Shown here: positions 2,729-18,044 of the stretch, in pieces
How the letters are laid out: each line of letters opens with the position of its first letter
How positions within the stretch are numbered: position 1 is the first letter of the stretch
NCBI GenBank assembly: GCA_046590985.1
Contig: JBKJVH010000036.1
Coordinates: 11,325-75,324 of the forward strand
DNA: 64,000 bases
Direction of reading: 5' to 3'
DNA from: Mycobacteriales bacterium
GTDB lineage: Bacteria > Actinomycetota > Actinomycetes > Mycobacteriales > SCTD01
Position numbers and translations under genes: made by a program
The notes under the pieces: model-generated
Databases searched by the model: none
What the model saw: only the letters and a program-made list of their open reading frames with translations
Told to the model about the DNA's origin: nothing

Positions 2729-2797
2729 GGGACAGCTCCAGGGGATGACTGGGGGAGCCGCGACAAGGCTTGTCGGGGCTTGCGGAGGCAGGGCCTG

Positions 2798-3109
2798 CTA
2801 GCAGGCCATGAGGGTGATGCGGTCGAGGCGGCGAAGGCGCCGGAGCTCGGTGCGGCGTGGTTCACCGCGGTGGTGAAGCAGCCGATGGCAGCTGCGGTGG
2901 ATCCACTCGACGTGGCCGTCCGCGCCGTGGTGGCCGCCGAGCTTGCCGGCCTGGTGGCAGACCACGCACAGCGGCCCGCGGTAGACGAGGTCGATAACGA
3001 GCTCAGGCGCGCTGGTGGTCGTCACCTCAGCGAGCAGCTGCTCCACGCGAGCGATCAGGTCCGGTGCCAGCTCCGGCGGCAGTCCCCACGCGATCTCGTC
3101 CGTCATCAT
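2798..3109 (-). CDS. small Cys/His-rich protein, HNH-like / zinc-binding
   Basis: 103 aa with high GC3. The segment CVVCHQAGKLGGHHGADGHVEWIHRSCHRLLHH resembles a CxxC...HH...CHxxxH HNH-type motif. It lies between the phosphatase and VWA genes on the same strand. Confidence 0.55.
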   Translation of the reverse strand: MMTDEIAWGLPPELAPDLIARVEQLLAEVTTTSAPELVIDLVYRGPLCVVCHQAGKLGGHHGADGHVEWIHRSCHRLLHHRGEPRRTELRRLRRLDRITLMAC

Positions 3110-3184
3110 GTCCCCCCAGGCGTTGTTGTGTGTACTTCCTTTGTACGGAAAGGGTCCGACAGTTTGGGCGCGCCTCCTTGACAG

Positions 3185-3781
3185 TCAGTCGTTCTCCGCG
3201 TCTTGGGCCTGGCGGATCATGCGTACGACGTCGAGCGGGTTGGCCAACCGCCAGGCCTGCAGCCGGACGAGGTCCTCGTACGACTCGGTGCCCTGGCGAC
3301 TGTGGTGCCAGGCCAGGGCGTCGCCGGCGTACCAGACGTTGGCGATGGGGCGGGCCTTGCGGATCGCCGCGATGGCGTCGACCGCGTCCCAGCCCTGGTG
3401 CAGGAGGACAGCGAAGCCGAGCGACGGGCCCCGGTTGATGCCCATGTGGCAGTGCGTCAGGACCACGGCGTTCGGTCCCGCGGCGTCGATCCACTCGATC
3501 GCCGCGTCGAACCAGGCCGCCGCTACGTCCTGCCCGGCGTCGTCCATGCCGTGGTGCAGGTAACCGATGTGGGGGAGGTGCTGGGCAAGGAGGTCCTCGT
3601 CGTTCCACTCGATCCGGCAGTCCACGATGTGCGTGATGCCGAGGCTGTCGATCTCGTTGAGCTGGTAAGCCGCCTTGAGCGGCGTGGCGTGCAGGTCCCC
3701 GCCGATCGCCAGGTGCGGGGTGACGAAGTGAAAGTTGGCGTGCTGGGCGATCGGCAGGGTCTGCAAGGTGGTGGCCTCCAA
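3185..3781 (-). CDS. dual-specificity / Cys-based protein phosphatase (CX5R)
   Basis: 198 aa. The active-site loop HCHMGINRG matches the HCxxGxxR signature, and a candidate general-acid Asp loop (GMDDAG) lies about 40 aa upstream. Confidence 0.8.
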   Translation of the reverse strand: MEATTLQTLPIAQHANFHFVTPHLAIGGDLHATPLKAAYQLNEIDSLGITHIVDCRIEWNDEDLLAQHLPHIGYLHHGMDDAGQDVAAAWFDAAIEWIDAAGPNAVVLTHCHMGINRGPSLGFAVLLHQGWDAVDAIAAIRKARPIANVWYAGDALAWHHSRQGTESYEDLVRLQAWRLANPLDVVRMIRQAQDAEND

Positions 3782-3959
3782 GGGCTGATCGGTGATCTGC
3801 GCTGAGCATAACGCTGCTGACAGAAGATATGCAAGAGGCAGATTTCAGGAGCTCGGGGAAGCCGCCAGAGCGCCGCCGGCGCCGTCCCGTTGATCCGATG
3901 AGCCTCCCTCACTTCTCGTCGTCTTGACGATAACCTCGGGGTCTGACAAGGTCGAGGTC

Positions 3960-4616
3960 ATGAGAGAGCAACGGGGCTGCGGCCCACTCGGCTCCCGCTA
4001 CACCGAGGCGCTTGCCTGGGCAGCAGAGCTGCACCACGACCAGCTCCGCAAGGGAACGCGGGTGGCGTACCTGTCCCACCTGATGTCGGTCAGTGCCCTG
4101 GTCCTGGAGGACGGGGGCACGGAGGACGAGGCCATCGCGGCCCTGCTCCACGACGCGGTCGAGGACACCGGTGCGCACATCGAGGCCGAGATCGCCTCCC
4201 GTTACGGCGATCTCGTCCGCTCCGTGGTCATGGAGTGCAGCGACTCGGCCGAGGAGGCCGGAGCGGCGAAGGCGCCCTGGTTGGTCAGGAAGCTCGCCTA
4301 TGTGGCGCACCTGCAGGGGGCGTCGCTGTCCGCGATCCGGGTGTCGGGCGCGGACAAGACGCACAACGCCCGGTCCATCGTGGTGGACATCGCGATCGAG
4401 GGCGGCTGGCCGACGTTCAACGCTTGCGAGCACAAGTCGCTCTGGTACTACGACGAGATCAGCCGGGCGGTCAGCGCACGGTTGCCGGGATCGCGTACGG
4501 CCTATCAGCTGTCGGAGCAGGTGGACGCGTTGTTCGCCAGTGTGGCGGTGGCCTCGCGGTCGCCGGTGGCGTTGGCGGAGCCGGCGGGGTGTGGGTGCGC
4601 GGACAACGCGTCGTGA
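3960..4616 (+). CDS. HD-domain hydrolase, (p)ppGpp-hydrolase-like (small alarmone hydrolase-like)
   Basis: AAELHHDQLRKGTRVAYLSHLMSVSALVLEDGG...AALLHDAVEDTG matches the RelA/SpoT-type HD (HD_4) pattern. ATG at 3960 has GAGG upstream; the track ORF starts at a TTG at 3924, so the start is uncertain. Confidence 0.75.
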   Translation: MREQRGCGPLGSRYTEALAWAAELHHDQLRKGTRVAYLSHLMSVSALVLEDGGTEDEAIAALLHDAVEDTGAHIEAEIASRYGDLVRSVVMECSDSAEEAGAAKAPWLVRKLAYVAHLQGASLSAIRVSGADKTHNARSIVVDIAIEGGWPTFNACEHKSLWYYDEISRAVSARLPGSRTAYQLSEQVDALFASVAVASRSPVALAEPAGCGCADNAS

Positions 4617-4627
4617 TGCCGCTGGGC

Positions 4628-6544
4628 TCACGAACGATGTAGCGCCGCGACGGTTGCAGGGCGGAGGGCGTCGCGCAGGTGTTCTTGGGTCTCCGGGTCG
4701 ACCGAGTAGATGACCGTTCCCAACATCCCGCGCGTCAGGAGCACCTTGTAGACGTTGCGGACCAGCCGGTCGAACTCCTGGTCGCTGACCTTGGTGCGGT
4801 TCCGGAAGTCGGGGTCCTTGTTGAGCTCACGGCGGGTGACCCACCGGTCTGTGCGCCACACCAGGTCAGGGCCGAGCAGGACGCCGTTCCAGTCGTACTC
4901 GAAGCCTTGAGCCGTATAGACGCACCCGACCTGGCTGAAGCCGCCGTCGGCGGATGCCCACAGCGCGGCTGGCGGGGCGCCGCCGACGCCTCGATCGCCT
5001 CTCAGGTTCCAGGGCTTTCCCCACCCGTTGATCTGCACATCCTGTACGAGGCTGCCGTCCTGGCGCGGGTCGCTCCAGGGCCAGCAGTACCCGGCGGTCA
5101 TCCGCGCACCGAAACCCTCGTCAAGGCGCGTCTGAAGGAAGGCCTCCATCTCGGCGGGGGACTCGGCGATCCGCACCTCGAAGCCGGGGTCGCCGCTCCA
5201 GTCGAAGGTCGGCTCCTCGGCGATCCCCAGGAAGGCCTTGACCCAGCGGACGTAGGTGTCGCTGCCACCGCAACGGAACTGGCCGTCCAGGTCGACCCGG
5301 TGGACCTCGAGTCCGAGGCTGTGGGCGTACGCCTCGATCTCGTGAACCGTGCCGAACTCGCCAGGTCGTACGACTTGGTGCTCGTCGAGGAGGAAGACCG
5401 GGACGCGGGCGGCGGCGATCAGCTCGTCGAGCTGCGGGCGGGCAGCCCCCCGGTGCTCCTTCTTGGTCCAGCGCGAGACGCTCGTCTCGCGGATCCGATG
5501 GGCTTCATCGAGAACCAGCACGTCCAGGCCGTTGCGGTCCGCAGCCATGAAGTCGTTGAAGTACTTGAAGAGCTGCTTCGCGGCAGGGGAGCGGTGGCCG
5601 GCGACCTTGCGGAGGGTCTGGGTGAAGGAGCGCGAGCCGGTGGCGTGGAGGACGCTTCGGCCGCGGCGGGCCAGCTCCCCGACCAGGGACAGGGCAATGA
5701 CGCTCTTCCCGCTGCCGGGTCCGCCCGTCACGATGATGACGCGCTTGCGGTCGGCCTCCCTGGCGCGGTCGACCTCGTGGAGGACCAGGTCGTAGGCGAG
5801 GCGTTGCTCGGCCAGCAGCACGAACTGCGTGCGTCGCTGAATCTCCTCGGCGGCCAGGGCGAGGAGCTGCTTGGACGGGGAGATGGCTGAGCACAGCAGC
5901 TGATCGGCGTAGGGGGCGCCGGCCACGTCGGGGTCGAGTCGGGTGCGCAGGTAGTCCAGCCACGCGGAGCGCCGGGCGCCGGTGAACAGCCGACCGCGGG
6001 CGTCCTGCGGGAAGTCGTACAGGTGCCTGACATCGGCGTCGTTGCCGACGTTGTGCAGGTAGGCGGCGCCGGCGACGAGGTCCGGCGTGTCCTGAAGGCA
6101 CGTCGTGAAGTCGACGAGGTAGTCGCAGTAGCCGCGTACCTGGGCGACGGGGTGCAGGCGCGGGCCGCCGGGCAGGCCATCCACGGTCACGAGCTCGGGG
6201 TCGTCCTCCCAGGGCTCAGCGCGGGACCACTGCTTCAGCTCGATCACCACGTACGAAGCCTCGCGGGTCCGCGGGTGCTGGCCGGCCAGGACCACATCCA
6301 TGCGCTTCGACGTGAGCGGAAGGCCCAACTCGACCAGCACCTCGACCTTGTCGAGGCCCGCCTGGATGAGGTCGTTCGCCAGGATCGGCAGGCTGCGGTC
6401 CCAGGAGCGGATCTCGCTCGGGCTCGGGCGCCGGCCTGAGGAGGCGCGCATCTGCTCGGTCAGGCGCACTCCCAGGGTCCCCTCCAGAGCCAACGCGGCG
6501 AGGCCGGCGGCGGAGTGGCGGAGCAATGACAAGGAGGACCCCAA
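4628..6544 (-). CDS. DUF2075-type protein: N-terminal PD-(D/E)xK-like module + P-loop NTPase/helicase-like core
   Basis: 638 aa. D...ExK-like motif (MDVVLAG...YVVIELKQW), Walker A (VTGGPGSGKS), Walker B-like (LVLDEAHRI) and the typical C-terminal VYTAQGFEYDW...KVLLTRG. Start uncertain (TTG at 6544 or a downstream GTG). Confidence 0.8.
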   Translation of the reverse strand: MGSSLSLLRHSAAGLAALALEGTLGVRLTEQMRASSGRRPSPSEIRSWDRSLPILANDLIQAGLDKVEVLVELGLPLTSKRMDVVLAGQHPRTREASYVVIELKQWSRAEPWEDDPELVTVDGLPGGPRLHPVAQVRGYCDYLVDFTTCLQDTPDLVAGAAYLHNVGNDADVRHLYDFPQDARGRLFTGARRSAWLDYLRTRLDPDVAGAPYADQLLCSAISPSKQLLALAAEEIQRRTQFVLLAEQRLAYDLVLHEVDRAREADRKRVIIVTGGPGSGKSVIALSLVGELARRGRSVLHATGSRSFTQTLRKVAGHRSPAAKQLFKYFNDFMAADRNGLDVLVLDEAHRIRETSVSRWTKKEHRGAARPQLDELIAAARVPVFLLDEHQVVRPGEFGTVHEIEAYAHSLGLEVHRVDLDGQFRCGGSDTYVRWVKAFLGIAEEPTFDWSGDPGFEVRIAESPAEMEAFLQTRLDEGFGARMTAGYCWPWSDPRQDGSLVQDVQINGWGKPWNLRGDRGVGGAPPAALWASADGGFSQVGCVYTAQGFEYDWNGVLLGPDLVWRTDRWVTRRELNKDPDFRNRTKVSDQEFDRLVRNVYKVLLTRGMLGTVIYSVDPETQEHLRDALRPATVAALHRS

Positions 6545-6746
6545 GCAGCACGAAGTGAATTCGTGCGGTGGGGGCGTGTCCTGGTTCGGAAGCCCGTCGA
6601 TACCGCTCCATGGACCTTAGTGCCAGGACGGTGCGAGCGAACGATCAGCACGTTCGTCACACAAGGGGCCACACACCCTGGATCACCAGAAATGACCATC
6701 ATGATCGGGGTCAGCCCCGTCGACAACCCCGTAGCAAGCCCAACGC

Positions 6747-9140
6747 TTGCTCGGAGGAGTGCTCGTGCGGACACGATCCGAGGTGTTGAGGCAGTTCGCT
6801 GCGTACGCACTTGCTGTGCTGGCGGTGCTGGCCATGGTCGCGGTCACGATCTGCTTCGCGACCGGGCAGGTGACGCGGGCCCTTGATGACCTGGCCGAGC
6901 TCGCTGTCGCGCTGCTCGCCAGCGCTGCGGCGGCGTTGGCGGCAGTCAAGGCCTCGGGTCGGCTGCGTGCGGCATGGTGGGCAGTGGCGGCGGGCTGCCT
7001 GTCCTGGAGCATCGGGGAAGCCATCTGGTCGACCTACGAGCTGGTCCTGCACCGGACGACCCCGTTCCCGTCGTGGGCCGATGTCGGCTTCCTGGGATTC
7101 CCGGTGGGTGCCGTGACGGCGCTGGCGCTGTTTCCCACGGGGGCCTCGCGGTCCGACAAGCGCCGGATGGTGCTGGACGGCCTGGTCGCGGCGTCCGCTA
7201 TCGGGTTGATCTCGTGGCTCACGGCGCTCGGTGCCGTGGTGCAGGCCGGCGGGGGCTCGTTTCTCGCCACGTCGGTCTCAGTGGCTTATCCCGCCGGTGA
7301 CGTCGTGGTGCTGGTGATGTGCGTGCTCGTGCTGCCGCGCTCGCGTTCGCACCAGGGCGCGCTGGCGGTCATGGCGGCGGGGCTGGCGCTGATGGCCGTC
7401 TCCGACAGCGGCTTCGCCTACCTCACGGCGCAGGGCAGGTACGCCACGGGTGACCCGGTCGACCTCGGTTGGATCCTCGCCTTCGGCTTGCTGGCCTTGG
7501 CTCCCCTCACCTCCCGTTCGGCCCGGCCCCAGGTCGCCGACCGGGACGGCGCCGCTGCCGGGGCGGCCCTGCCGTACCTGCCGTTGCTGGCCGTGGTCGG
7601 CGTGCTCGCGTGGCACTACAGCGAGGGTCGCACGTTGACAGCCGGGGATGCGGCCCTGCTCGCCACGCTCGTGGTGCTCATCTCCGTGCGGCAGTTCCTG
7701 ACCGGTCGCGACAACCAGCTGCTGGCCCGGGGCCTCGCGTCTCGGGACGCGGAGCTGCGGCACCAGGCGTTCCACGACGGGCTCACCGGCCTGGCCAACC
7801 GAGCGTTGTTCGTCGATCGCGTGGAACACGCGCTGGAGCTGCACCGACGTGACCAGCGGCCGCTTGCGGTCTGCTTCCTGGACCTCGACGGGTTCAAGGC
7901 TGTCAACGACACGTTGGGACATGCCGCGGGAGATGAGCTGCTGCGGCAGGCCGGCGACCGCTTCCGCGCGAGCTTGTCCGCCGCCGACACCCTGGCCCGG
8001 TTGGGTGGCGATGAGTTCGCGGTCCTGCTCGAGGACGGTCCGGACCCCCTGCAGGCGGCGGAGAGGCTGCTGCAGACCCTCGCGGCTCCGTTCCTGGTCG
8101 CGGGCACCCAGGCGCGCGTCCAGGCGAGCATCGGGGTCGCCCGGGTCGGGGCCGGCTCGCCCAGTCCCACCCTCGATGACCTGCTGGGCCGCGCGGACCT
8201 GGCGATGTACGTCGTGAAGCGACGCGGCAAGAACGGCGTCCTGCTGTACACCGACGGTCTGCAACTGACCGATGAGGACGAGCAGTCGCTCGCACGAGCG
8301 CTGGCACAGGCGCTGCTCGACGGGCAGGTCACGGTGGCGTTCCAGCCCGTCACCGAGCTGGCCAGCGGGCGGATCCTGTCCTTTGAGTGCTTGGCACGAT
8401 GGGCCCCGCAGGGCAAGGAGGTGCCGCCGGAGCAGTTCGTCGCGGTGGCTGAGCGGTGCCAGCTCATCGACCAGCTGTTTCAGGCGGTCCTGGCGCAGGC
8501 GTGCGCGGCGCTCGTCGTGTGGAAGCGACTGCCTGGGTTCGCCGATCTCACGGTTGCGGTGAACGTCAGCCCGTCGCAGCTCACGCGCGCCGACCTCCCC
8601 GACCAGGTCGCTGCCGAGCTGGCCCGGCACGGACTGCGCGGTCAAGACCTGGTTCTCGAGATCACCGAGACGATGTCGCTGGATGACCCGACCGTGAGTT
8701 TGGTGGTCTGCCAACAGCTGCGAGGGCGTGGGATCCGGCTGTCCGTCGATGACTTCGGTGCCGGCATGAGCTCGATGGCCCGGCTGCGAACGCTGCCCAT
8801 CGACGAGATCAAGATCGATCGTTCCTTGATCACGGGGGTGGACAAGGACGAGCGCGCGCAGCGGTTCGTACGCGGCGTGATCGCCTTCGCGCACCAGGTC
8901 GGTCTGACGGTCACGGCCGAGGGCATCGAGCGCGCGGAGGAGCGGAAGGCGCTCACGGCTCTGGGCTGCCATCTCGGTCAGGGCTTCTTCTTCGCTTCGC
9001 CGGTCAGCGCCGACGAGGTCGGGTTGTTGCTGGCACGGGGAGCTCACCTGCCCCACCGAGGGTGGCCAGTTCCTGCCCCACAGCAACCTGGCCCCAGACG
9101 GATTCCCGTCAGCCGAGTGACTGCCCCTGGAGGAGCGTGA
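6747..9140 (+). CDS. membrane-anchored GGDEF-EAL c-di-GMP turnover protein
   Basis: The polytopic N-terminal half has many hydrophobic helices. GGDEF is intact (RLGGDEFAVLL). The EAL domain has an ECL variant (FECLARW), plus DDFGAG, KIDRS and EGIE. The start may be a GTG at 6759/6765, following the GGAGGA site. Confidence 0.85.
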   Translation: MLGGVLVRTRSEVLRQFAAYALAVLAVLAMVAVTICFATGQVTRALDDLAELAVALLASAAAALAAVKASGRLRAAWWAVAAGCLSWSIGEAIWSTYELVLHRTTPFPSWADVGFLGFPVGAVTALALFPTGASRSDKRRMVLDGLVAASAIGLISWLTALGAVVQAGGGSFLATSVSVAYPAGDVVVLVMCVLVLPRSRSHQGALAVMAAGLALMAVSDSGFAYLTAQGRYATGDPVDLGWILAFGLLALAPLTSRSARPQVADRDGAAAGAALPYLPLLAVVGVLAWHYSEGRTLTAGDAALLATLVVLISVRQFLTGRDNQLLARGLASRDAELRHQAFHDGLTGLANRALFVDRVEHALELHRRDQRPLAVCFLDLDGFKAVNDTLGHAAGDELLRQAGDRFRASLSAADTLARLGGDEFAVLLEDGPDPLQAAERLLQTLAAPFLVAGTQARVQASIGVARVGAGSPSPTLDDLLGRADLAMYVVKRRGKNGVLLYTDGLQLTDEDEQSLARALAQALLDGQVTVAFQPVTELASGRILSFECLARWAPQGKEVPPEQFVAVAERCQLIDQLFQAVLAQACAALVVWKRLPGFADLTVAVNVSPSQLTRADLPDQVAAELARHGLRGQDLVLEITETMSLDDPTVSLVVCQQLRGRGIRLSVDDFGAGMSSMARLRTLPIDEIKIDRSLITGVDKDERAQRFVRGVIAFAHQVGLTVTAEGIERAEERKALTALGCHLGQGFFFASPVSADEVGLLLARGAHLPHRGWPVPAPQQPGPRRIPVSRVTAPGGA

Positions 9141-11709
9141 ACGCCTGGTCCTCCGGGACAGGCCGAGCGAACAGGTAGCCCTGCCCGTACTGGCAACCCA
9201 TCTCCACGAGCTGCTCGCGCTGCTCGGTGGTCTCGACCCCCTCGGCGATCGCGACGATCTCGAGCTGCTCTGCCAGCTTCAGGATGGTCGTGGCGACGGC
9301 CGATGCGGCCTTCGACGTGCCCAGATCGGCCACGAAGCTGCGGTCGATCTTGAGCCGCTGAACAGGCAGCCGCGTCAGGTAGGACAGCGAGGAGAAGCCC
9401 GTGCCGAAGTCGTCGATGCTGATGTCCGCGCCGGTCGCCGCCAGTTCGTTGAGGGTCTGCAGAACGGCCGCGGTGTTGTCCATCAGGGTGGACTCGGTGA
9501 GCTCCAGGCCGAGGGTCCACGGGGCCAGAACCTCGGTGGACTCCGCCACGAGGTCGAGCAGCCTCGACGAGGACAGCTGTTGAGCGGCGACGTTGACCGA
9601 CATCGTCAGGGCGTCGCCGCCGAGCTCGTCGCGCCAGCGCCGAGCGGTGTGGACCGCAGTGCTGAGAACCCACTCCCCGAGCGGGAGGATGAGGCCGGTT
9701 TCCTCGGCCAGCTGCAAGAAGACATCCGGGCCGAGCAGCCCACGCTCGGGGTGCTGCCATCGCACCAGCGCCTCGAACCCGACGATGCGGTTGCCGTCAC
9801 GCAGGTCAACCAGGGGCTGGTAGTAGACCCGGAACTGCCCCTCCGCGATCCCTTGCCGGATCTGGTTCTCCAGGTCGAGCCGGTCGAACGCCCGCTGGCG
9901 CATGTGGTCGCCGAACACCTCGAAGCTGTTGCCGCCTCGCTGCTTCGCTCGGTACATCGCGATGTCGGCATCGCGCAGCACGGCGGTGGCGGTCTGTCCG
10001 GCGGAGGCGGCGACGAGGCCGATGCTCGCGGCGGGTGCGATGATGCGACCTTCGAGCTCGACCGGCTCGGCGATGACCCGGAGGAGGGTCTGAGCGAGGT
10101 GCGCCATGGCGGCCTCATCACCCAGTCGGGTCGAGAGCACCACGAACTCGTCCCCGCCGAAGCGGGCCAGCAGATCCTCTTGTCCTATCGCGGCACGCAG
10201 CCGGCGGGCGATGCTGACGAGCAGTTCATCGCCCACGTCGTGGCCCAGCGAGTCATTGATGACCTTGAGCCGATCAAGGTCGAAGAACAGCACAGCAGGG
10301 GTGGGACCGCCGTGCGCGCAGCGGTCCAGCGCCTCGGTGAGACTCAGGAGCAGGTGCAACCGGTTGGGGAGCAGGGTGAGGGCATCGTGCTGCGCCTGGT
10401 GCGCGAGCCGCCCCAGCAAGCGGTGCCTGTCGACGGTGATGCCGACCAGGTGGCTGGCGCGTTCGACGACGGCCTCCACCCCGGCGCCGGGAAGGCCGGG
10501 CACGTTGCGATAGAGCGCGAACGAGCCCAGAGTCGCGCCGCTCGCCGGAGAGCTGATGGGGTAGGACCAGCAGCTCCGGACGTCGCACACCTCGGCGAGG
10601 GGGTACATCTGATTCCAGCGCTGGTCCGCGAAGATGTCGGCTACCAGTACGGGCGTCGACTCACCGACCGCCACGGCGCACGGTGACGCCAGCTCTCCGA
10701 TCGACATGCCGTCGACCCCGGCGCGGTAGGCATCGGGCATGGTCGGCGAGGCGGCGTCGCGGAGCACCCGGTGCGGGACCCCCGCCTCGGTGAGCAGGAT
10801 GGTGCAACGGGTGTCGGGGAGCTCTCGCTCCACCCAGTTCGCGACCTCGGTGAGCACGTCGTCGACGGGGGCCTCGTTCGCGATCAGCTCGAGCACGCGC
10901 GCGAGGTTGGCTTGCGCCCGCTCGGCCTCAACCGTCTCGGTCACGTCCCGCGCGGTGATCACCACGCCCCCGATGCTCGGTTCGTGGAGGAGGTTGTTGG
11001 CGCGGGCCTCGAAGTGCACCGCGTCCCCGTTGGCGCGGAGCACCCGCAACCGGACCTTCGCGGTGTCACCGGGGCGCTCCAAGATGGCCTCGAGGGCCAC
11101 CCGAGCCCTGTCCCGCTCCTCAGGGTGCACCAGCTCCAGCACGGAACGACCCTGCTGGCTGCCCTCGTCGTGACCCAGGATGCGGGACGAGGAGGGACTG
11201 GCGTACTTCAGCGTGAGGTCCTGGTCGACGAGCAGGACGAGGTCTGACATGTGCAGCAGCAGCGCCCGGTGCAGCTCCTCGCTGCGCTGCAAGGCGCGAG
11301 TGGCGGTGGCCGCTTCGACGTTCGCGGCTCGCAGCTCACGCAGGTCTCGTTGGATGGTGGCCATCGCGACCGGAACCTTGGTGCGCGGGTCGACGAGCAC
11401 GAAGGACGTGACCAGGACGGGGATGGGGCCGCCGCCCCGCCAGTCGCGGAGCGTCGACTCGCCGGTCCAGAAGCCGTCCCGGACGACCGCTGGCTGCTCC
11501 ACCTCGAAGCTGGCGGCGAGGCCTTCCTCGGTGAGGTAGTCCGAGATGGCCGTCTCGGTGACGTCATGGTCGGGGTCGATGCCCACAAGGGCTCGACCGG
11601 CCGCGTTGAGGAACTCGACCTTGCCCTCGATGCTGGCCACGGCGATGAAGTCGGGGTTGGCAAGCACGAGCGCCTCGAAACGTCGAAGCTGCTCTTCGTC
11701 CTCGAGCAC
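9109..11709 (-). CDS. PAS-PAS-GAF-GGDEF-EAL signalling protein
   Basis: GGDEF (RFGGDEFVV), EAL (FEALVRW, DDFGTGFSS, LKIDRSF, AEGVET), and PAS-like and GAF-like regions N-terminally. Start set at GTG 11709 (GGAAGGG lies upstream). The track ORF extends to 11934 through a low-quality, Arg/Pro-rich extension. Confidence 0.85.
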   Translation of the reverse strand: MLEDEEQLRRFEALVLANPDFIAVASIEGKVEFLNAAGRALVGIDPDHDVTETAISDYLTEEGLAASFEVEQPAVVRDGFWTGESTLRDWRGGGPIPVLVTSFVLVDPRTKVPVAMATIQRDLRELRAANVEAATATRALQRSEELHRALLLHMSDLVLLVDQDLTLKYASPSSSRILGHDEGSQQGRSVLELVHPEERDRARVALEAILERPGDTAKVRLRVLRANGDAVHFEARANNLLHEPSIGGVVITARDVTETVEAERAQANLARVLELIANEAPVDDVLTEVANWVERELPDTRCTILLTEAGVPHRVLRDAASPTMPDAYRAGVDGMSIGELASPCAVAVGESTPVLVADIFADQRWNQMYPLAEVCDVRSCWSYPISSPASGATLGSFALYRNVPGLPGAGVEAVVERASHLVGITVDRHRLLGRLAHQAQHDALTLLPNRLHLLLSLTEALDRCAHGGPTPAVLFFDLDRLKVINDSLGHDVGDELLVSIARRLRAAIGQEDLLARFGGDEFVVLSTRLGDEAAMAHLAQTLLRVIAEPVELEGRIIAPAASIGLVAASAGQTATAVLRDADIAMYRAKQRGGNSFEVFGDHMRQRAFDRLDLENQIRQGIAEGQFRVYYQPLVDLRDGNRIVGFEALVRWQHPERGLLGPDVFLQLAEETGLILPLGEWVLSTAVHTARRWRDELGGDALTMSVNVAAQQLSSSRLLDLVAESTEVLAPWTLGLELTESTLMDNTAAVLQTLNELAATGADISIDDFGTGFSSLSYLTRLPVQRLKIDRSFVADLGTSKAASAVATTILKLAEQLEIVAIAEGVETTEQREQLVEMGCQYGQGYLFARPVPEDQAFTLLQGQSLG

Positions 11710-11954
11710 GTGTCCGCCCTTCCGGTCAGCGGCGCTGAGTGCATTGTGCCCCGAAAGGTGGACGATCGTGCTCCGACGACAAACCCTGGCTCGTCGGACA
11801 GCATCCGGTTCCGCTCCGGGTGCTCCAGGTGAAGACCGGCTCGCGTCGGGAAGCATCACGGCTGCGCGACCCGGGTCGGGGAGCTCGTCCGGAGCTTCCA
11901 CGGAGCTGCACCACGTTCTACCCTTCTGCGGCATGTCCGGTTTAGGCTCCGGAC

Positions 11955-12920
11955 GTGGTCGACGACTTCGTGATCGCGCTCAACCCTGATCCGGACTCCG
12001 CGCTGCCCTACCTGCTGCGGCTGCCGCTTCCCGGCAGAGCGGTGGTGCTGAAGGCACGGGAGACCTGGCCGCGGACGAGCAAGGTCTACTGCCACCGGGC
12101 GGAGGGCTGGCCGGAGGACGCCGAGATCGTCGAGCGCGTACCGGTGAAGCAGTGCACAGCCCGTGGGCCGGCCGTGGACCTGGTGCTCGACCGGGGCAGG
12201 GAGAACCGCAGCCAGCTGGTGTTCACGCGGCTCAAGGGAGGTCGCGAGGCGATCTTCTGGCAGACCGCGCGGACGAACCAGAAGGCCCGGCCGGGGGTGC
12301 GTACCCCCACCGCAAGGGCCAGCGGGATGACCGAGCTCGAGATCGTCGTGGACGGCCGCGAGCGGTACGCCTATCAGTTCGCTAGCCAGCAGGCCACGAC
12401 AGTGAAGGGCTCGCTGGCGTGCGGGGACTACGGCGTCCGCCGCGATGGCCGGCTCGTCGGCGTGGTCGAGCGCAAGTCGCTGGAGGACCTGACCCGGTCG
12501 CTGGTGGACGGCCGGATGGGCGCGCAGTGCGCGGAGCTGGCGACCGTCGAGCACGCCGCCGTCGTCATTGAGGAGCGCTGGTCCAAGGTGTTCTCGCTGA
12601 CCTACGTGAAGCCGTCGTTTGTCGCGGACCTGCTGGCGCGGGTGCAGGTGCGCTGGCCGACGGTGCCGATCTTCTTCGCCGAGACCCGGCCGCTGGCGGA
12701 GGAGTGGACGTTCCGGTTCCTCGGGGCGGCGTACGCCGAGAGTCTCGGTCACGAGCAGGTCAGCGAGCGGTTGGCGGCGTTGGTGCCGGCTCCGGAGCTA
12801 GCGGCAGCACCGCCGACGCCGGCCGTCATCCGCGCCTGGGCGCAGGAACACGGGCTCGGGCTGGCCGACCGCGGCCGGATCCCGGCGGGGGTCGTGCAGG
12901 CGTTCCGCGACGCGCACTGA
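11955..12920 (+). CDS. ERCC4-type nuclease fused to an Lsr2-like C-terminal DNA-binding domain
   Basis: 321 aa. ERCC4 signature: VVDGRE...CGDYGV...VVERKSLEDLTRSLVDGRMGAQ. The C-terminus VIRAWAQEHGLGLADRGRIPAGVVQAFRDAH resembles the Lsr2 DNA-binding domain, including the RGR motif. About 125 N-terminal aa are unassigned. Confidence 0.8.
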   Translation: MVDDFVIALNPDPDSALPYLLRLPLPGRAVVLKARETWPRTSKVYCHRAEGWPEDAEIVERVPVKQCTARGPAVDLVLDRGRENRSQLVFTRLKGGREAIFWQTARTNQKARPGVRTPTARASGMTELEIVVDGRERYAYQFASQQATTVKGSLACGDYGVRRDGRLVGVVERKSLEDLTRSLVDGRMGAQCAELATVEHAAVVIEERWSKVFSLTYVKPSFVADLLARVQVRWPTVPIFFAETRPLAEEWTFRFLGAAYAESLGHEQVSERLAALVPAPELAAAPPTPAVIRAWAQEHGLGLADRGRIPAGVVQAFRDAH

Positions 12921-13857: not shown

Positions 13858-16281
13858 TCAGAGCCCGAGCAGGCCGCGCAGCCGACGGCTGCTCATCGCG
13901 CCTGGTTGCTCGTCGTCGCCGAAGTCGTCGAGCAGGGCGAGCAGGTCGCGTTTTCCGCGGGGGTCCTGCAGGGACTGGCGCGGTGTGAGACCGCCCAGGG
14001 CTGGGATCTCGGTGTCCACCCACTCCTGCTCGTGCTTGACGATGAAGGCCTCGAGCGCCTCGAGCATCTCCGGGGACTGCTCTTCGGGGCGCGGGGCGAG
14101 CGGTCGATCGCGACCGGCGAGCTCAGAGCCTGGAAGGAACTCCGACGTCACCAGCCGGGCCGTCGGCAGGACCCGCTGCACGAGCGCGGCGGCTTGGTCC
14201 CAGGTCTCGCGGGCCATCGTGGAGGCCGTCAGCTCGCTGCCGTCGAGGTCGAACTTCGCCAGGATGGAGTCGCCGTCCTTCAGGAGGAGCTCGTCGTCCC
14301 CGAGCTCGGCGGCGAGGGCCCGCTGTGCGGCCGCGGGATCGGGCACGCTCCAGGCCCCGGTGCACAACACGAGGGGGTACCCCTGCTTGGTGCGCATCTC
14401 CGGTGGGGCGGAGGCTTGCCGCAACCAGTCGATGGCGACGGCTTCGGGGGACTCGGACGCCCGCAGCGCCGCCGCGAGCTGGGGACGCTGCCCCCGCGGG
14501 ACGCCGATGAGGCTGCTGAACAAGAAGCCGTCGCCGCCGTCGGGCAGCACCCTGGCGAGGAGCACGTCGCCCACCGACAGCTGGGTTGACCCCAACCTTT
14601 CATGGACGAACACCTCGTGGTCGTCGTCCATGTCCCGCAGCTGGACTCCGCGGTGAGGCTTCACGTTGGTGACCTCCCAGAGGGCAAGCGGGGTGGTCAG
14701 CCACCGCTGCAGCAGGTCGGCCTCGTCGGGGGGCAACGCCGGACCCCGGCGCGTCGCGAAGTCATGGATGAGCTCGTCGCCCCAGAGCATGAGGTCGTGG
14801 GTGAAGGGGTCGCCCTGCGCCCTGGCCACCCACTCCGCGGGCTCGTTCGGTGCCAGCTCGGCGACCAGGTCGAACAGCTCCTTCCGGTGGGTAGGTAGCA
14901 GTAGCCACTGGCTCAGCTTCGCCCACAGCCAACGTGCACGGTCCTCGAGCGGGTGCTGCGCTTTGGCGAGGCAGCAGGCCTTGTGCTTCTTGCCGGAGCC
15001 ACACGGGCACGGCGCGTTGCGGCTCGTTCCGGTCGTCGGGGGTTCGGCCCAGCGGCGCAGTCGCAGCACGTCGGGGTCGTTGGCCGGGATCCCTGCCTTG
15101 CGCTGCAGGTCCAGGGCAGTACGGGCGTCGCCCCGGTCTTCGGCATACCGGGCAGCGAGCAGGAGCGGAAACGGATCTGCCGGCGACGCCCGGACCGCTC
15201 GGGATGCCAGCTCGTCGGCCTCGTCCACCTTCCCGTGCTCCTCTGCGTGGAGTGCCAGCGCTGCGAGGACGGCAGCCTTCGCAGCCCCGTCAGCCAGGGG
15301 GACGAGCGCGGTGAACAGCGGGTCGACGGCATGCAGCTCGCCGGTGCTCTGCAGGTACGCACACAGTGCCGCACCCGCGCGGGCGCGTCCCAAGGGTGCC
15401 GCGAGCCTGCCCAGCTGGATCGCGCCGGGTACCTCCGCACCGTCTGCGACCTGCCACATCGCGGGCAGCAGGTCGCGCACTCCCTGTGCGGCGGGGCTAT
15501 CGAGGTGGAAGGCCGAGAGCAGCGACTCGAGCTCGACGTCTTCGTCGTCCTCATCGAGGTCGTTCCAGTCCCAGGGGGTCCAGTCGGTGCCGGGCAGGCC
15601 GACGAGGGATCCCAGGACCTCCAAGGGCTGCAGGCGCTCCGGGAGCGAAAGCCCAGGCCGCGTGAAGGCTTGCGGGTGGTCGTGGAGGAAGGCAAGAACC
15701 CGGTCGGACAGTCCGACGACCTCGCTGCGCGACGTAGTCCGGGCGAGCAGCTCGAGGTCGTGCCGTACCCGGTCGACGAGGAGCTCATCGAGCTCAGGTT
15801 CCAGGTCCGGTTCCCCCACCACCGCGAAGTGGAGGTGGTCTCCGTCCCGGCTCACGGCCATCAGGTCGCCTGCGTTCCACCCGTTTAGCCAGCCCCGGTC
15901 GCCCGTCACGGAGCGCCGCTTCCAGCCCACCTCCCGGCGGGTTCGCACAGCGCCGAGGTTGCTGCTGAGGTCGGCGTCGAACCCGACGGTCAAAGGGCTC
16001 AGGTCGGGCAGGGTGTCGAGCTCTTCGCGGTCCAGCTCGTCCTGCGACAACCGGTGCGTGAAGACACGCCCTCGGACGAGGGCGACGGAACTCGCCCAGC
16101 GTCCGTCGGTCAAGTGGGTGAACTGCTGCCTGTGGGCGACCGTCTCCCGGACGACCTCCTTCGGCTTCTTGGCCTTGGTCGCTCCGGCGGCGACGAGGAG
16201 GTCGGTGAGCTCATCGAGGGCCAGCGGACCCCGTTCGAGGAGGAGGGCGAGGGCCTGATCGGCGATGGTGGGTCGAGCCAT
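13858..16281 (-). CDS. large SEC-C motif protein (wHTH-like head, beta-rich domain, TPR-like repeats, SEC-C zinc knuckle, MbcA/ParS-like C-terminus)
   Basis: 807 aa. SEC-C motif CPCGSGKKHKACC. Helical repeats lie around 330-440. The C-terminus WVDTEIPALGGLTPRQSLQDPRGKRDLLALLDDF resembles a DUF2384-like toxin-binding domain. The N-terminal ~170 aa are similar to the protein at 17142-18044. Confidence 0.8.
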   Translation of the reverse strand: MARPTIADQALALLLERGPLALDELTDLLVAAGATKAKKPKEVVRETVAHRQQFTHLTDGRWASSVALVRGRVFTHRLSQDELDREELDTLPDLSPLTVGFDADLSSNLGAVRTRREVGWKRRSVTGDRGWLNGWNAGDLMAVSRDGDHLHFAVVGEPDLEPELDELLVDRVRHDLELLARTTSRSEVVGLSDRVLAFLHDHPQAFTRPGLSLPERLQPLEVLGSLVGLPGTDWTPWDWNDLDEDDEDVELESLLSAFHLDSPAAQGVRDLLPAMWQVADGAEVPGAIQLGRLAAPLGRARAGAALCAYLQSTGELHAVDPLFTALVPLADGAAKAAVLAALALHAEEHGKVDEADELASRAVRASPADPFPLLLAARYAEDRGDARTALDLQRKAGIPANDPDVLRLRRWAEPPTTGTSRNAPCPCGSGKKHKACCLAKAQHPLEDRARWLWAKLSQWLLLPTHRKELFDLVAELAPNEPAEWVARAQGDPFTHDLMLWGDELIHDFATRRGPALPPDEADLLQRWLTTPLALWEVTNVKPHRGVQLRDMDDDHEVFVHERLGSTQLSVGDVLLARVLPDGGDGFLFSSLIGVPRGQRPQLAAALRASESPEAVAIDWLRQASAPPEMRTKQGYPLVLCTGAWSVPDPAAAQRALAAELGDDELLLKDGDSILAKFDLDGSELTASTMARETWDQAAALVQRVLPTARLVTSEFLPGSELAGRDRPLAPRPEEQSPEMLEALEAFIVKHEQEWVDTEIPALGGLTPRQSLQDPRGKRDLLALLDDFGDDEQPGAMSSRRLRGLLGL

Positions 16282-16303
16282 GCGCGCACTCTAGGTCTCG
16301 CGC

Positions 16304-16705
16304 TCACACGCGATGGACCACGACGCGGGCCGCGTCGCACAGCGCAGGCAGGTCCGTCAGAACGGTCACGCCGCCCGCCGCCTCCCTGGCGACCTGGGCC
16401 ACGCACGCGTCGGTGACGGAACCGGCGATGCGCCGCAGCTCGACGGCGCGGTCAGCGCGCGTGGAGTCCAACGGCACGTCCGCGATCCGCAGCCGCGCAA
16501 GGCTGGCGGTCGACGGCGCCCGCCGGTCAACACCGGCCTCGACCCGCACCACGGTCGGCACCCGAACGGTCACGCTGGCGACACGACGGCGGTTCCGGGT
16601 CGAGGTGGCCTCCAGGAAGGCCAGCACCGCTCGGTGCTTCCCGTGGTGGACGTCGGCGAGGGCCTGGAGCGCCTCGTTGTCGAGAACGATCACCTGGCCC
16701 GTCAC
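16304..16705 (-). CDS. PIN-like nuclease (putative toxin component)
   Basis: 133 aa. The acidic residue pattern is compatible with PIN: VIVLDNEAL, VRVEAG, SVTDAC, VTVLTD. There is a 4-nt overlap with the upstream gene. Confidence 0.6.
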   Translation of the reverse strand: MTGQVIVLDNEALQALADVHHGKHRAVLAFLEATSTRNRRRVASVTVRVPTVVRVEAGVDRRAPSTASLARLRIADVPLDSTRADRAVELRRIAGSVTDACVAQVAREAAGGVTVLTDLPALCDAARVVVHRV

Positions 16706-17115
16706 GCCGTGGCACGGCCTTCGCCGACGAGCAGGCTCGTGGCCCAGAGCAGGACCTCCTCACCGTCGGGAACGGCCTTGTACGCGCGCACCTCCCGCTC
16801 CGCCTGCTCGAGCAGGTCGACCCGGTCGACCAGCGGACTGCGGTCCAGCACTGCCAAGGCTCGGGCGACCTCGGCAAGAGTCGGCCGGCTGCCAGGGTGC
16901 TGGGCGTAGTGCTCGTCGAGCGCCAGCCGCTGCGCGAACGCGTCGAGCAGCGCGCGGAGTGCCTGGTTGGTGGCGTCGTTGGCGTTCGGCGCGAGACCGA
17001 GCTCGATGCCGATCTGGAGCGCCGTGCGCAACGAGGTGGGCTGACGCACCGAGGTGGTGGTCGTGGGGGCATCGACGTCGTCGAGGGCCACGATGAGGTC
17101 GTCGAGGGTTACCAT
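16702..17115 (-). CDS. helical acidic protein, putative antitoxin/partner of the PIN-like protein
   Basis: 137 aa from ATG 17115, with GGAGGTGG 5 nt upstream. The track ORF (to 17382) over-extends into the upstream gene. No family recognised. Confidence 0.55.
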   Translation of the reverse strand: MVTLDDLIVALDDVDAPTTTTSVRQPTSLRTALQIGIELGLAPNANDATNQALRALLDAFAQRLALDEHYAQHPGSRPTLAEVARALAVLDRSPLVDRVDLLEQAEREVRAYKAVPDGEEVLLWATSLLVGEGRATA

Positions 17116-17141
17116 GTCCACCTCCTGTACCACAGAGTGTA

Positions 17142-18044
17142 CTACTTCCAGTCGGCGAGGCTCACGACGTCGCTGTCGTACGGCTCGTCGTCGTAGAAGT
17201 CGTAGCGCCCGTACTCGTAGCGGGAAGCGGGCGGCCGTAGCCGGTCGGTGGCAGCGCTCAGGAGCATGCTGGCGTAGTCGGGCAGGTTGTCCCCGAGCAG
17301 GTACGCGCGGCGTTCGAGCTCCTCGTGCACCCGGGCCGGGACCGTCAGCGTCACGCGTCGCCCGTCCGTGCCGTGCTCCCACAGGAGCGGGTCCGAGAGC
17401 ATCTCGTTGCTGAGAGGCAACAGCTCGGTCAGCGGAGGGAGCGGTAGCGACAGCAGGTGTGGGTTCTCCTGCAAGGCGCTGAGCACGACCCGCGTCCAGT
17501 GCCCTGCGTGCTGAGGACCCCGCTGAGCCAGCGCGTGCAGGCGAAGCAGCAGCAGCACCTCCTGGACCGCCGGATCGTTCGGCGTCGGGACGTCAGCGAG
17601 CGCGGTCACCGAGAGCCCTGTGCCGTCCCAGCTGAACGCGAGCAGCTCGCTACGGGCCACGTCGGGCAGCCAGCCGTCCGGGCCGACGAGCGTCGCGATC
17701 TCGAAGGAGCCACGCCGGGCGAACCCGCCGCCGGTGAGCGGGATGCCGGCCGGCGTGTGCAGCAGGTCGAACGGCTCGAGGTCCCGGTGCACCCAGACCC
17801 GGCTGTCGCGGAGCAGACTCCGTGGGCGGGTGGTCAGCACCGCGCCGACCAGCCGGCGGCTCCGGACGTCCCATCTCCCGTCGGGCAGCTTCTCGGTGCC
17901 CCCACAGGCCAGCAGGGTGTTGACGATGCTCTTGGTGGTCTTCGCGGTCGAGCGGCCGGTGCGCACGAGCTCCTGATGGATCTCGGCTTCACTGCACGGG
18001 CCGTGCTGGCGGAGGTGGTCGAGGATGGTGTCGGAAAGGTTCAT
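17142..18044 (-). CDS. hypothetical protein with wHTH-like N-terminus, paralogous to the N-terminus of the SEC-C protein
   Basis: 300 aa. MNLSDTILDHLRQHGPCSEAEIHQELVRTGRSTAKT...LPDGRW aligns by eye with ALALLLERGPLALDELTDLLVAAGATKAKK...LTDGRW of the 807-aa protein. Confidence 0.65.
   Translation of the reverse strand: MNLSDTILDHLRQHGPCSEAEIHQELVRTGRSTAKTTKSIVNTLLACGGTEKLPDGRWDVRSRRLVGAVLTTRPRSLLRDSRVWVHRDLEPFDLLHTPAGIPLTGGGFARRGSFEIATLVGPDGWLPDVARSELLAFSWDGTGLSVTALADVPTPNDPAVQEVLLLLRLHALAQRGPQHAGHWTRVVLSALQENPHLLSLPLPPLTELLPLSNEMLSDPLLWEHGTDGRRVTLTVPARVHEELERRAYLLGDNLPDYASMLLSAATDRLRPPASRYEYGRYDFYDDEPYDSDVVSLADWK

Follow-up and report, generated by a model that had tools for sequence, protein, structure and literature searches.

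An ERCC4 nuclease with a family-specific β-barrel and an Lsr2-type DNA-binding tail, found on chromosomes and plasmids of Actinomycetota

A 64 000 nt stretch of DNA from a Mycobacteriales bacterium (GenBank assembly GCA_046590985.1, contig JBKJVH010000036.1; the whole stretch is here called the window) carries a gene for a 321 amino acid (aa) protein, in which an ERCC4 nuclease domain is preceded by an all-β domain specific to its family and followed by an Lsr2-type DNA-binding domain. The gene is accessory, horizontally mobile and stand-alone, and is vertically stable over short evolutionary distances. We tentatively favour the view, which we would place a little short of probable, that the product is a stand-alone structure-specific ERCC4 endonuclease, anchored by its Lsr2 domain, that provides a mobile accessory repair or maintenance function.

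XPF, Mus81 and Hef nucleases are textbook repair enzymes of archaea and eukaryotes, and to our knowledge bacterial members have hardly been studied. The family described here is strongly conserved and large, comprising thousands of sequence clusters and occurring in at least 589 species, but no published function was found for it, and a full-text search of the literature returned no paper on ERCC4-Lsr2 proteins. Carriers include mycobacterial, Rhodococcus and Streptomyces plasmids. Characterization would show how bacteria use an XPF-type nuclease that has no (HhH)2 domain, and what the ligand of an ultra-conserved barrel is.

The gene and its product

The open reading frame (ORF) and the parts of its product lie as follows, all on the plus strand of the window:

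11955-12920 (+), complete coding sequence with GTG start and TGA stop, 321 aa (ORF listing, GC content at third codon positions, full-length homologues)
11955-12284 (+), family-specific N-terminal β-barrel, aa 1-110, nine strands (AlphaFold confidence score, pLDDT, ~90; Foldseek; conservation)
12285-12332 (+), linker ARPGVRTPTARASG..., aa 111-126 (pLDDT <50, yet conserved)
12333-12779 (+), ERCC4 nuclease domain with long C-terminal helix, aa 127-275 (Pfam PF02732, Foldseek, catalytic residues invariant in 73/73 homologues)
12351-12353, 12360-12362 and 12426-12428 (+), catalytic codons D133, E136 and D158
12468-12476 and 12486-12488 (+), catalytic codons E172-R173-K174 and D178
12810-12914 (+), Lsr2-type DNA-binding domain, aa 286-320, two helices (Pfam PF23359, alignment to 6qkq/2kng, PHROG, motif in 69/73 homologues)
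12870-12878 (+), RGR minor-groove motif within the Lsr2-type domain

The initial annotation, made from the sequence without database searches, had placed the start at 11935, which is the first base of an inverted repeat. The gene begins at 11955, and this GTG is backed by homologues, whose N-termini fall at the same residue in the alignment. Identity to the window protein is 60-81% among full-length homologues. The GC content of the gene (0.71) and its value at third codon positions (GC3, 0.92) are typical for this genome, and on these figures the idea of an AT-rich or compositionally foreign gene was rejected.

The three-part architecture that had been proposed for the ORF was borne out by a Pfam scan, a PDB sequence search, AlphaFold and Foldseek. 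At E≤1 the Pfam scan matched ERCC4 (PF02732) and Lsr2_DNA-bd (PF23359), both past their curated thresholds, and no other family. The full-length AlphaFold model, which was built on 73 homologues and has a pLDDT of 87.4, contains four regions: an all-β N-terminal domain (aa 1-110), a linker (112-123) for which disorder is predicted, an α/β nuclease domain that closes with a 30-residue helix, and a two-helix C-terminal domain.

A complete ERCC4 nuclease without an (HhH)2 domain

The match to PF02732 spans aa 132-254 (E=9.1e-13, 48.8 bits against a cutoff of 24). The NCBIfam models for Hef, Rad1 and archaeal Xpf matched only partially, in their nuclease part; PHROGs returned an ‘ERCC4-type nuclease’ family, and the PDB sequence search found the Hef nuclease domain 1j22 (E=2e-4). 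With Foldseek, the nuclease domain resembled those of Hef, Aeropyrum pernix XPF, human XPF and Mus81 (1j22/1j24, 2bgw/2bhn, 6sxa and 4p0p) at E values of 1e-7 to 1e-5, with target-normalized TM scores up to 0.74. The signature GDXnERKX3D, reported initially as complete, is so, and the upstream acidic residues of VDxRE are also present. D133, E136, G157, D158, E172, R173, K174 and D178 are invariant in 73/73 homologues, and no catalytic residue has been substituted.

Hef (Pyrococcus furiosus 1j22-1j25), A. pernix XPF (2bgw/2bhn), XPF-ERCC1 and Mus81-Eme1 share with the window protein the ERCC4 fold and the signature, and the Hef and XPF domains are its best matches in both sequence and structure. 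XPF-family enzymes are dimeric, metal-dependent and structure-specific nucleases of 3'-flap, fork or nicked-junction DNA in which tandem helix-hairpin-helix domains, (HhH)2, serve dimerization and hold the duplex arms, and ERCC4 enzymes recognize DNA structure rather than sequence. The window protein differs from these relatives in having no (HhH)2, helicase or helicase-like domain, and a barrel and a single Lsr2-type tail instead; its family is also bacterial and partly plasmid-borne, with no partner subunit gene nearby. No HhH family was matched at E≤1 in the Pfam scan, and beyond the long helix the AlphaFold model contains only the two helices of the Lsr2 domain. By profile, motif and fold alike, the window protein belongs to the ERCC4 family, but it does not have the hallmark (HhH)2.

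The Lsr2-type tail

Lsr2-like similarity had been claimed for the C-terminus, including an RGR motif, and the profile searches upheld it. PF23359 matched aa 286-320 (E=1.7e-11, 43.7 bits against 26.9), the PDB sequence search aligned the tail with the Lsr2 DNA-binding domains 6qkq/2kng (E ~5e-3) over ...IRxWA...RGRIP..., and PHROGs matched it to Lsr2-like families. The RGR motif is R/K-G-R in 69/73 homologues. In Lsr2 itself, this domain binds the minor groove of AT-rich DNA via RGR.

Comparison with Lsr2, the nucleoid-associated xenogeneic silencer of actinobacteria (Rv3597c of Mycobacterium tuberculosis and relatives), revealed a common C-terminal domain of ~35 aa with the signature W...A...RGR(I/V)P. 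However, the window protein does not have the N-terminal dimerization/oligomerization domain that Lsr2 needs for bridging and silencing, and the tail makes up only 11% of a protein in which it is joined to an enzyme. The database name ‘Lsr2’ borne by some homologues is therefore a misnomer; judged by its sequence, in which the oligomerization domain was not detected, the window protein is no Lsr2 protein.

If that name were taken at its word, the nuclease fold would be catalytically dead and the protein solely a DNA-binding or nucleoid protein. Some records are indeed called ‘histone-like nucleoid-structuring protein Lsr2’ and the tail is a genuine Lsr2 DNA-binding domain. We nevertheless regard this as very improbable, as all of the ERCC4 metal-binding and catalytic residues are invariant in the 73 homologues and, with no Lsr2 N-terminal oligomerization domain found by Pfam, neither bridging nor silencing is to be expected.

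Homologues from Thermoleophilia are 275 aa long and have no Lsr2 tail, and where the tail is present it is the least conserved domain (mean pairwise identity 0.53). As the tail is absent from Thermoleophilia, the barrel and the ERCC4 domain are the evolutionary core and the Lsr2 domain an add-on. Similar additions are known. In the cluster J mycobacteriophages Omega and Corndog, Ku is fused to the last ~30 aa of Lsr2, including RGR (PMC8612146). These fusions are likewise DNA-end or repair proteins with a C-terminal Lsr2 piece, but their core is Ku where ours is ERCC4, and they are phage-encoded whereas the window protein has no phage homologues.

When the window protein was searched against PADLOC-DB v2.0.0, no defence component was matched except by the C-terminal 35 aa: aa 287-321 of the tail match the final 35 positions of a model for a type II methyltransferase (PDLC03328, E=0.0047). 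By this sequence match, some actinobacterial methyltransferases may carry the same Lsr2-type tail. Taken together, the Ku-Lsr2 fusions and the methyltransferase model suggest by analogy that the Lsr2 domain is a portable, promiscuous DNA anchor for DNA enzymes in Actinomycetota. The question that this raises is whether the domain serves as a general ‘DNA anchor’ (on the nuclease, on Ku and perhaps on methyltransferases) or as a device for targeting AT-rich foreign DNA.

The N-terminal β-barrel and the linker

The initial annotation left the N-terminal ~125 aa unassigned. A distinct domain is there, folded and all-β, but it covers aa 1-110, and the remainder is the linker predicted to be disordered. 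The barrel is the most conserved part of the protein (mean pairwise identity 0.77), with many invariant Arg residues as well as invariant C46, H47, C67 and E83. A search with the barrel only returned 745 cluster representatives, and the best 150 of these were all at least 49% identical to it, from which we conclude that the barrel is confined to this nuclease family.

Aa 1-127 were also modelled separately (pLDDT 82.8). When the barrel was compared with the PDB using Foldseek, the top two matches were 3'-phosphoesterase (PE) domains of the LigD type, 3n9d from Pseudomonas aeruginosa LigD (E=3.4e-3, TM 0.54) and the archaeal PE domain 3p43 (E=7.3e-3, TM 0.55). Foldseek probability for the PE matches was 1.0 and TM ranged over 0.54-0.56; the next match was at E=0.28. 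These PE domains, which have an eight-stranded β-barrel fold and are like the window domain in size and all-β topology, are its only credible structural neighbours, and BFVD contained no structural neighbour among viral models.

The structural likeness is not accompanied by detectable sequence similarity. Pfam found no LigD_N (PF13298) match in the window protein, hmmsearch with the barrel against PDB sequences found no PE domain, hhalign gave E=0.19 with 4 PE cores and E=0.26-0.5 when 103 barrel sequences were aligned with 120 PE sequences, and Smith-Waterman z-scores were <1. Homology at the sequence level is therefore not supported, and we hold with moderate confidence that the barrel has a LigD-PE-like fold for which common ancestry is unproven. 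The Mn-binding and catalytic residues of the PE domain are His42, His48, Asp50, Arg52, His84 and Tyr88 (P. aeruginosa numbering), and His48 and Asp50 are metal ligands. A single short local alignment pairs His48 with Pro18 and Asp50 with Leu20, and keeps Arg52 as Arg22. Phosphoesterase activity is unlikely in the barrel because the two metal ligands align with Pro18 and Leu20.

The pattern of conservation suggests instead that the barrel binds an invariant, probably phosphate-rich ligand. Because of the invariant Arg residues, C46, H47, C67 and E83, and because conservation is so strong, a ligand of the DNA-structure type would fit, the obvious candidate being a DNA end or junction.

The linker that follows is conserved despite its predicted disorder (mean pairwise identity 0.70; A111, R112, P113 and R121 invariant), and may serve as a DNA-binding arm or as a motif for protein interaction.

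A proposed mode of action

In the reading that we favour, the single Lsr2 tail would take over from (HhH)2 as the duplex-binding module. Through it the enzyme, which is probably homodimeric, would grip the duplex minor groove with some preference for AT. The barrel, with a LigD PE fold from which the metal-binding His and Asp are missing, would read a DNA end or junction, such as the strand terminus at a flap, gap or fork, and the ERCC4 domain would then cleave the branched or flapped strand. The protein would be made from a leaderless mRNA that is probably expressed constitutively, and its role would be to process DNA with flaps, branches or breaks formed in or with mobile DNA and recombination, and not to carry out sequence-directed (AT-directed) restriction. 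Such an enzyme would supply a missing flap or branch nuclease for actinobacterial and plasmid DNA metabolism.

Two explanations had been offered initially, cleavage of AT-rich or foreign DNA and, as an alternative, a repair-type nuclease recruited by an Lsr2-type reader. The second is closer to the evidence.

Distribution and conservation of the family

The ERCC4-Lsr2 fusion, which might have been thought unique, is widespread, and both of its Pfam labels are already present in public databases. In a collection of one genome per GTDB species, at least 589 species of Actinomycetota carry a relative, and the same protein is encoded by 23 actinobacterial plasmids. Hosts belong to the Actinomycetes (Nocardioides, Georgenia, Ornithinimicrobium, Terrabacter, Mycolicibacterium, Nonomuraea and others), Acidimicrobiia and Thermoleophilia.

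When 5.8 billion proteins were searched, thousands of matches were returned, and 118 of the best 120 carry both PF02732 and PF23359; the remaining two have ERCC4 only, and one of these is truncated at 255 aa. One of the best 120 is the window protein itself, and the others are 59-81% identical to it. The 120 stem from Mycobacteriales, ‘Frankiales’ and Nocardioides; their labels read ‘ERCC4 domain-containing protein’, ‘ERCC4 domain/Lsr2’ or, in error, ‘histone-like nucleoid-structuring protein Lsr2’. Representatives clustered at 50% identity are mostly fragments and were unfit for architecture counts.

Between the barrel (0.77) and linker (0.70) at one end of the protein and the Lsr2 tail (0.53) at the other, mean pairwise identity is 0.65 for the ERCC4 domain and 0.54 for the C-terminal helix. 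In a neighbour-joining tree, clades at the level of genus and family are coherent, but the tree is incongruent at class level, with Acidimicrobiia nested in Actinomycetes and Thermoleophilia sister to the clade that includes the window protein. The plasmid copies form a separate clade.

Two metagenome-assembled genomes each have two copies of the gene on different contigs (loci L026/L029 and L067/L073), and in one of them the flanks are near-identical. These double copies could reflect duplication, strain heterogeneity within the bin or the presence of one copy on a mobile element.

Plasmids and transposable elements

The plasmid copies lie in a variety of mobile settings. On 21 kb plasmids of M. 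chimaera, the gene is one of only 19 and is found between genes for a resolvase and ParA. It adjoins IS21 in M. avium p2-JPH1 and in M. liflandii pMUM002, which is the mycolactone plasmid, a Tn7-like tnsABC-tniQ set on a Rhodococcus plasmid and IS110 in M. chubuense, and on a Pseudonocardia plasmid it lies between a Tn3 transposase and a resolvase gene. Another Rhodococcus plasmid context places it among HigBA and HipA toxin-antitoxin genes, and a Streptomyces linear plasmid has it with DUF932 and DUF6192. As there are plasmid copies, transposase or recombinase neighbours, variable positions and class-level incongruence in the tree, we conclude that this is an accessory mobile gene.

These settings raise the possibility that the protein is a factor for the maintenance or establishment of mobile elements, which would resolve branched intermediates or multimers, or compete with host Lsr2 on the AT-rich DNA of the element. 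In the latter variant, it would act in counter-silencing or anti-defence in a leading region. The positions in the M. chimaera and Pseudonocardia plasmids, the adjoining Tn7-like, IS21 and IS110 elements and the separate clade of plasmid copies all suit such a factor, as does a DUF932 gene located 74 nt downstream in locus L093 and 1.6 kb downstream in the Streptomyces plasmid. DUF932 is typical of the leading regions of conjugative elements. However, most copies are chromosomal, in clades that are coherent at genus level and among ordinary neighbours, and the GC3 of the gene is that of its host. Without the Lsr2 oligomerization domain only local competition with Lsr2 would be possible, and for counter-silencing an invariant nuclease site would be needless. 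We therefore consider a role of this kind unlikely.

No homologue was found in 50 697 phage genomes. With none there and no structural neighbour of the barrel in BFVD, viral relatives were rejected.

Chromosomal neighbourhoods and the case for defence

Neighbourhoods were defined with an approximate, GC3-based gene caller, which misses genes in compositionally atypical islands such as that at locus L093. When the ORFs flanking 82 loci were clustered all against all, no more than 9/82 loci had a neighbour in common. The 150 nearest neighbours, from 80 species, fall into 142 Pfam families, and the commonest of these (phage integrase, DUF222/HNH, Helicase_C and AAA_16) have three members each. 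On these counts a conserved operon or partner gene was rejected. Linkage to genes for non-homologous end joining was likewise rejected, as no Ku or LigD PE gene was present near any of ~97 loci or in the window.

A few loci do lie among genes of conflict. Locus L093 has a compact island (1999-10080) of atypical codon composition that includes genes for a PLD-DEAD helicase, an HNH_2 nuclease, NERD, ScoMcrA_N and DUF932. At loci L089 and L095 there are genes for a WXG100-RNase toxin and its immunity protein, a PIN gene and an adjacent Fpg glycosylase gene, and in L059 an integrase gene is directly upstream of the nuclease gene. Searched with PADLOC, the 150 nearest neighbours, as delimited by the approximate gene caller, included two to three SNF2 helicases that resemble DpdE/ZorD/DrmD, and the rest were heterogeneous.

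On this evidence the protein could be a single-protein nuclease against foreign DNA, in which the Lsr2 domain steers ERCC4 to AT-rich xenogeneic DNA that is cut rather than silenced. A refined form of the idea resembles Shedu, where SduA is a single-protein defence nuclease with N-terminal domains that sense DNA ends; here, when phage or plasmid DNA comes in, the barrel would sense its free ends or its replication intermediates and license cleavage. The likeness to Shedu is an analogy of logic only, in that one polypeptide from a stand-alone gene has a sensor domain followed by a nuclease with a restriction-endonuclease-like fold. The nuclease families are different, there is no sequence or PADLOC match, and a defence function here is hypothetical.

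The mobile accessory distribution, with plasmids and with transposon and integrase neighbours, speaks for defence, as do chromosomal positions that vary even among close relatives, the class-level incongruence of the tree, the absence of homologues from the phage genomes and the conserved RGR motif. The conflict genes at L093, the toxin-antitoxin and WXG100 toxin genes at L089/L095, and vapBC and a Schlafen (SLFN)-type helicase gene in the window, point the same way. Against it, no PADLOC model other than that of the methyltransferase, and then only through the tail, was matched, and among the 150 nearest neighbours the two to three defence-like helicases and three integrases are outnumbered by metabolic and regulatory genes. 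Host chromosomes have AT-rich, Lsr2-bound regions of their own, and the lack of any partner for modification or immunity would expose them to self-cleavage. ERCC4 enzymes are specific for structure and not for sequence, and the tail that would do the targeting is missing in Thermoleophilia and is the least conserved domain. Defence sensors usually evolve fast and are less conserved than this barrel, which is 77% identical across classes. Finally, plasmids themselves carry the gene. We find this explanation rather doubtful.

A broader version, which we rate lower still, would have the protein act in immunity or in competition between elements, with the barrel sensing ends or branches, the Lsr2 domain homing to AT-rich DNA and the XPF-type nuclease destroying it. 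It seems to us similarly unlikely that such a nuclease, carried about by plasmids and transposons, is the ‘executioner’ to match silencing by Lsr2. Were defence the function, xenogeneic silencing would be linked to DNA destruction.

Several points also weigh against the structure-specific repair or maintenance nuclease that we favour. Its substrate preference, its dimerization and the role of its barrel are all inferred. A repair gene would more often keep its synteny, and phages often carry recombination nucleases, yet none has a homologue of this one; both facts fit a role in conflict at least equally well. To these are added the Ku and LigD PE genes that are missing from the loci, and the minority of loci that lie among defence-type genes (L093, and the two to three with SNF2 helicases).

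The gene neighbourhood in the window

The gene neighbours in the window are as follows:

1217-22535, chromosomal district shared with, and compared with, loci L087 and L094
3924-4616 (+), HD_4 gene
4628-6544 (-), gene for a Schlafen-group-3/DUF2075-type helicase, 638 aa (PF09848, E=3e-87)
13858-18044 (-), gene for a SEC-C-motif protein (807 aa) and three downstream ORFs
37037-38656 (+), gene for a NERD-UvrD-type helicase of ~550 aa (in L087 at 8268-9926 and in L094 at 9464-11128)

The vapBC genes reported beside the nuclease gene are there, with a ribbon-helix-helix and a PIN domain. The four-gene PIN module reported with them was not recovered: at E≤1e-3 neither PIN nor any other Pfam domain was matched in the SEC-C-motif protein or the three ORFs downstream of it, and no PIN was found in the other downstream ORFs scanned. 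Nor is the vapBC/PIN neighbourhood conserved beside homologues, so the significance attached to it falls away; the two GGDEF-EAL genes, vapBC and the SEC-C protein gene that neighbour the nuclease gene in the window are not found beside homologues.

L087 and L094 are the closest long contigs, and the window shares with them a chromosomal district marked by a VWA gene, in which gene order and content differ. Genes for a DSPc phosphatase, a BNR/Sortilin protein and an acyl-CoA dehydrogenase recur in the window and L087. The gap between the DSPc and BNR genes is ~14.6 kb in the window, where it holds the HD gene, the SLFN helicase gene, the two GGDEF-EAL genes, the nuclease gene, vapBC, the SEC-C protein gene and unknowns, and ~0.6 kb in L087. 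This district of the window is a variable region.

The gene for the NERD-UvrD helicase is directly beside the nuclease gene in L087 and L094 and within 5 kb of it in ~8/85 loci; short NERD proteins are encoded near the nuclease gene in five further loci. The orthologue in the window is 53% identical and lies 24 kb from the nuclease gene. This may represent a loose functional link, for which the archaeal Hef helicase-nuclease fusion offers a comparison, or only regional synteny.

The HD_4 gene adjoins the Schlafen-type helicase gene 5 kb upstream of the nuclease gene, and the pair has a defence-like flavour.

The upstream region

The following features were located upstream of the nuclease gene:

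11943-11948 (+), -10-like hexamer TAGGCT, which ends 6 nt before the GTG and is conserved at a fixed distance in most of the family
11935-11954, inverted repeat GTCCGG-N8-CCGGAC, which overlaps the -10 hexamer and spacer and is probably fortuitous
11772-11798, inverted repeat TCCGACGA-N11-TCGTCGGA, which lies in the divergent intergenic region and is probably fortuitous

The motif TAnGnT upstream of the start is invariant in the six closest relatives. Across the family, a strict TANNNT ending 6-8 nt before the start is present in 32/89 loci, compared with a background of 0.3%, and NANNNT (first base T, C or G, typically CAGACT or CACACT) in 76/89 loci, compared with 6.9%. No Shine-Dalgarno sequence is visible before the GTG. 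In actinobacteria, leaderless mRNAs are recognized by a -10 box 6-7 nt before an ATG or GTG together with the lack of a Shine-Dalgarno sequence. Given the -10-like box at a fixed 6 nt from the start and no Shine-Dalgarno, the sequence suggests that the mRNA is leaderless, with its 5' end at the start codon.

Both inverted repeats are exactly where they were initially reported, but the regulatory meaning hinted at for them was rejected. In dinucleotide-preserving shuffles of the 247 nt upstream region, 10-15% equalled the observed repeats. An 8 bp repeat of the type at 11772-11798 arose in 9.8% of shuffles, and the window contains 53 of them; per 247 nt, the window averages 0.2 such 8 bp repeats and 2.9 of the 6 bp type. 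The five closest relatives have neither repeat, and their upstream regions are otherwise unalignable. The repeat adjoining the GTG is merely the -10 box plus its spacer. The region had also been called relatively AT-rich, which holds only marginally (GC 0.65-0.69, compared with 0.71 for the window).

An association with tRNA genes was considered and rejected as a general feature, as only two loci, L050 and L077, are in a tRNA cluster and the window has no tRNA gene. In these two loci, both from Acidimicrobiia, the start of the nuclease gene follows the 3' end of a tRNA-Arg gene by 1-2 nt, and six tRNA genes make up the surrounding cluster (L050 2679-4509 is the tRNA-linked nuclease locus in the first), and there processing of the tRNA could generate the leaderless 5' end.

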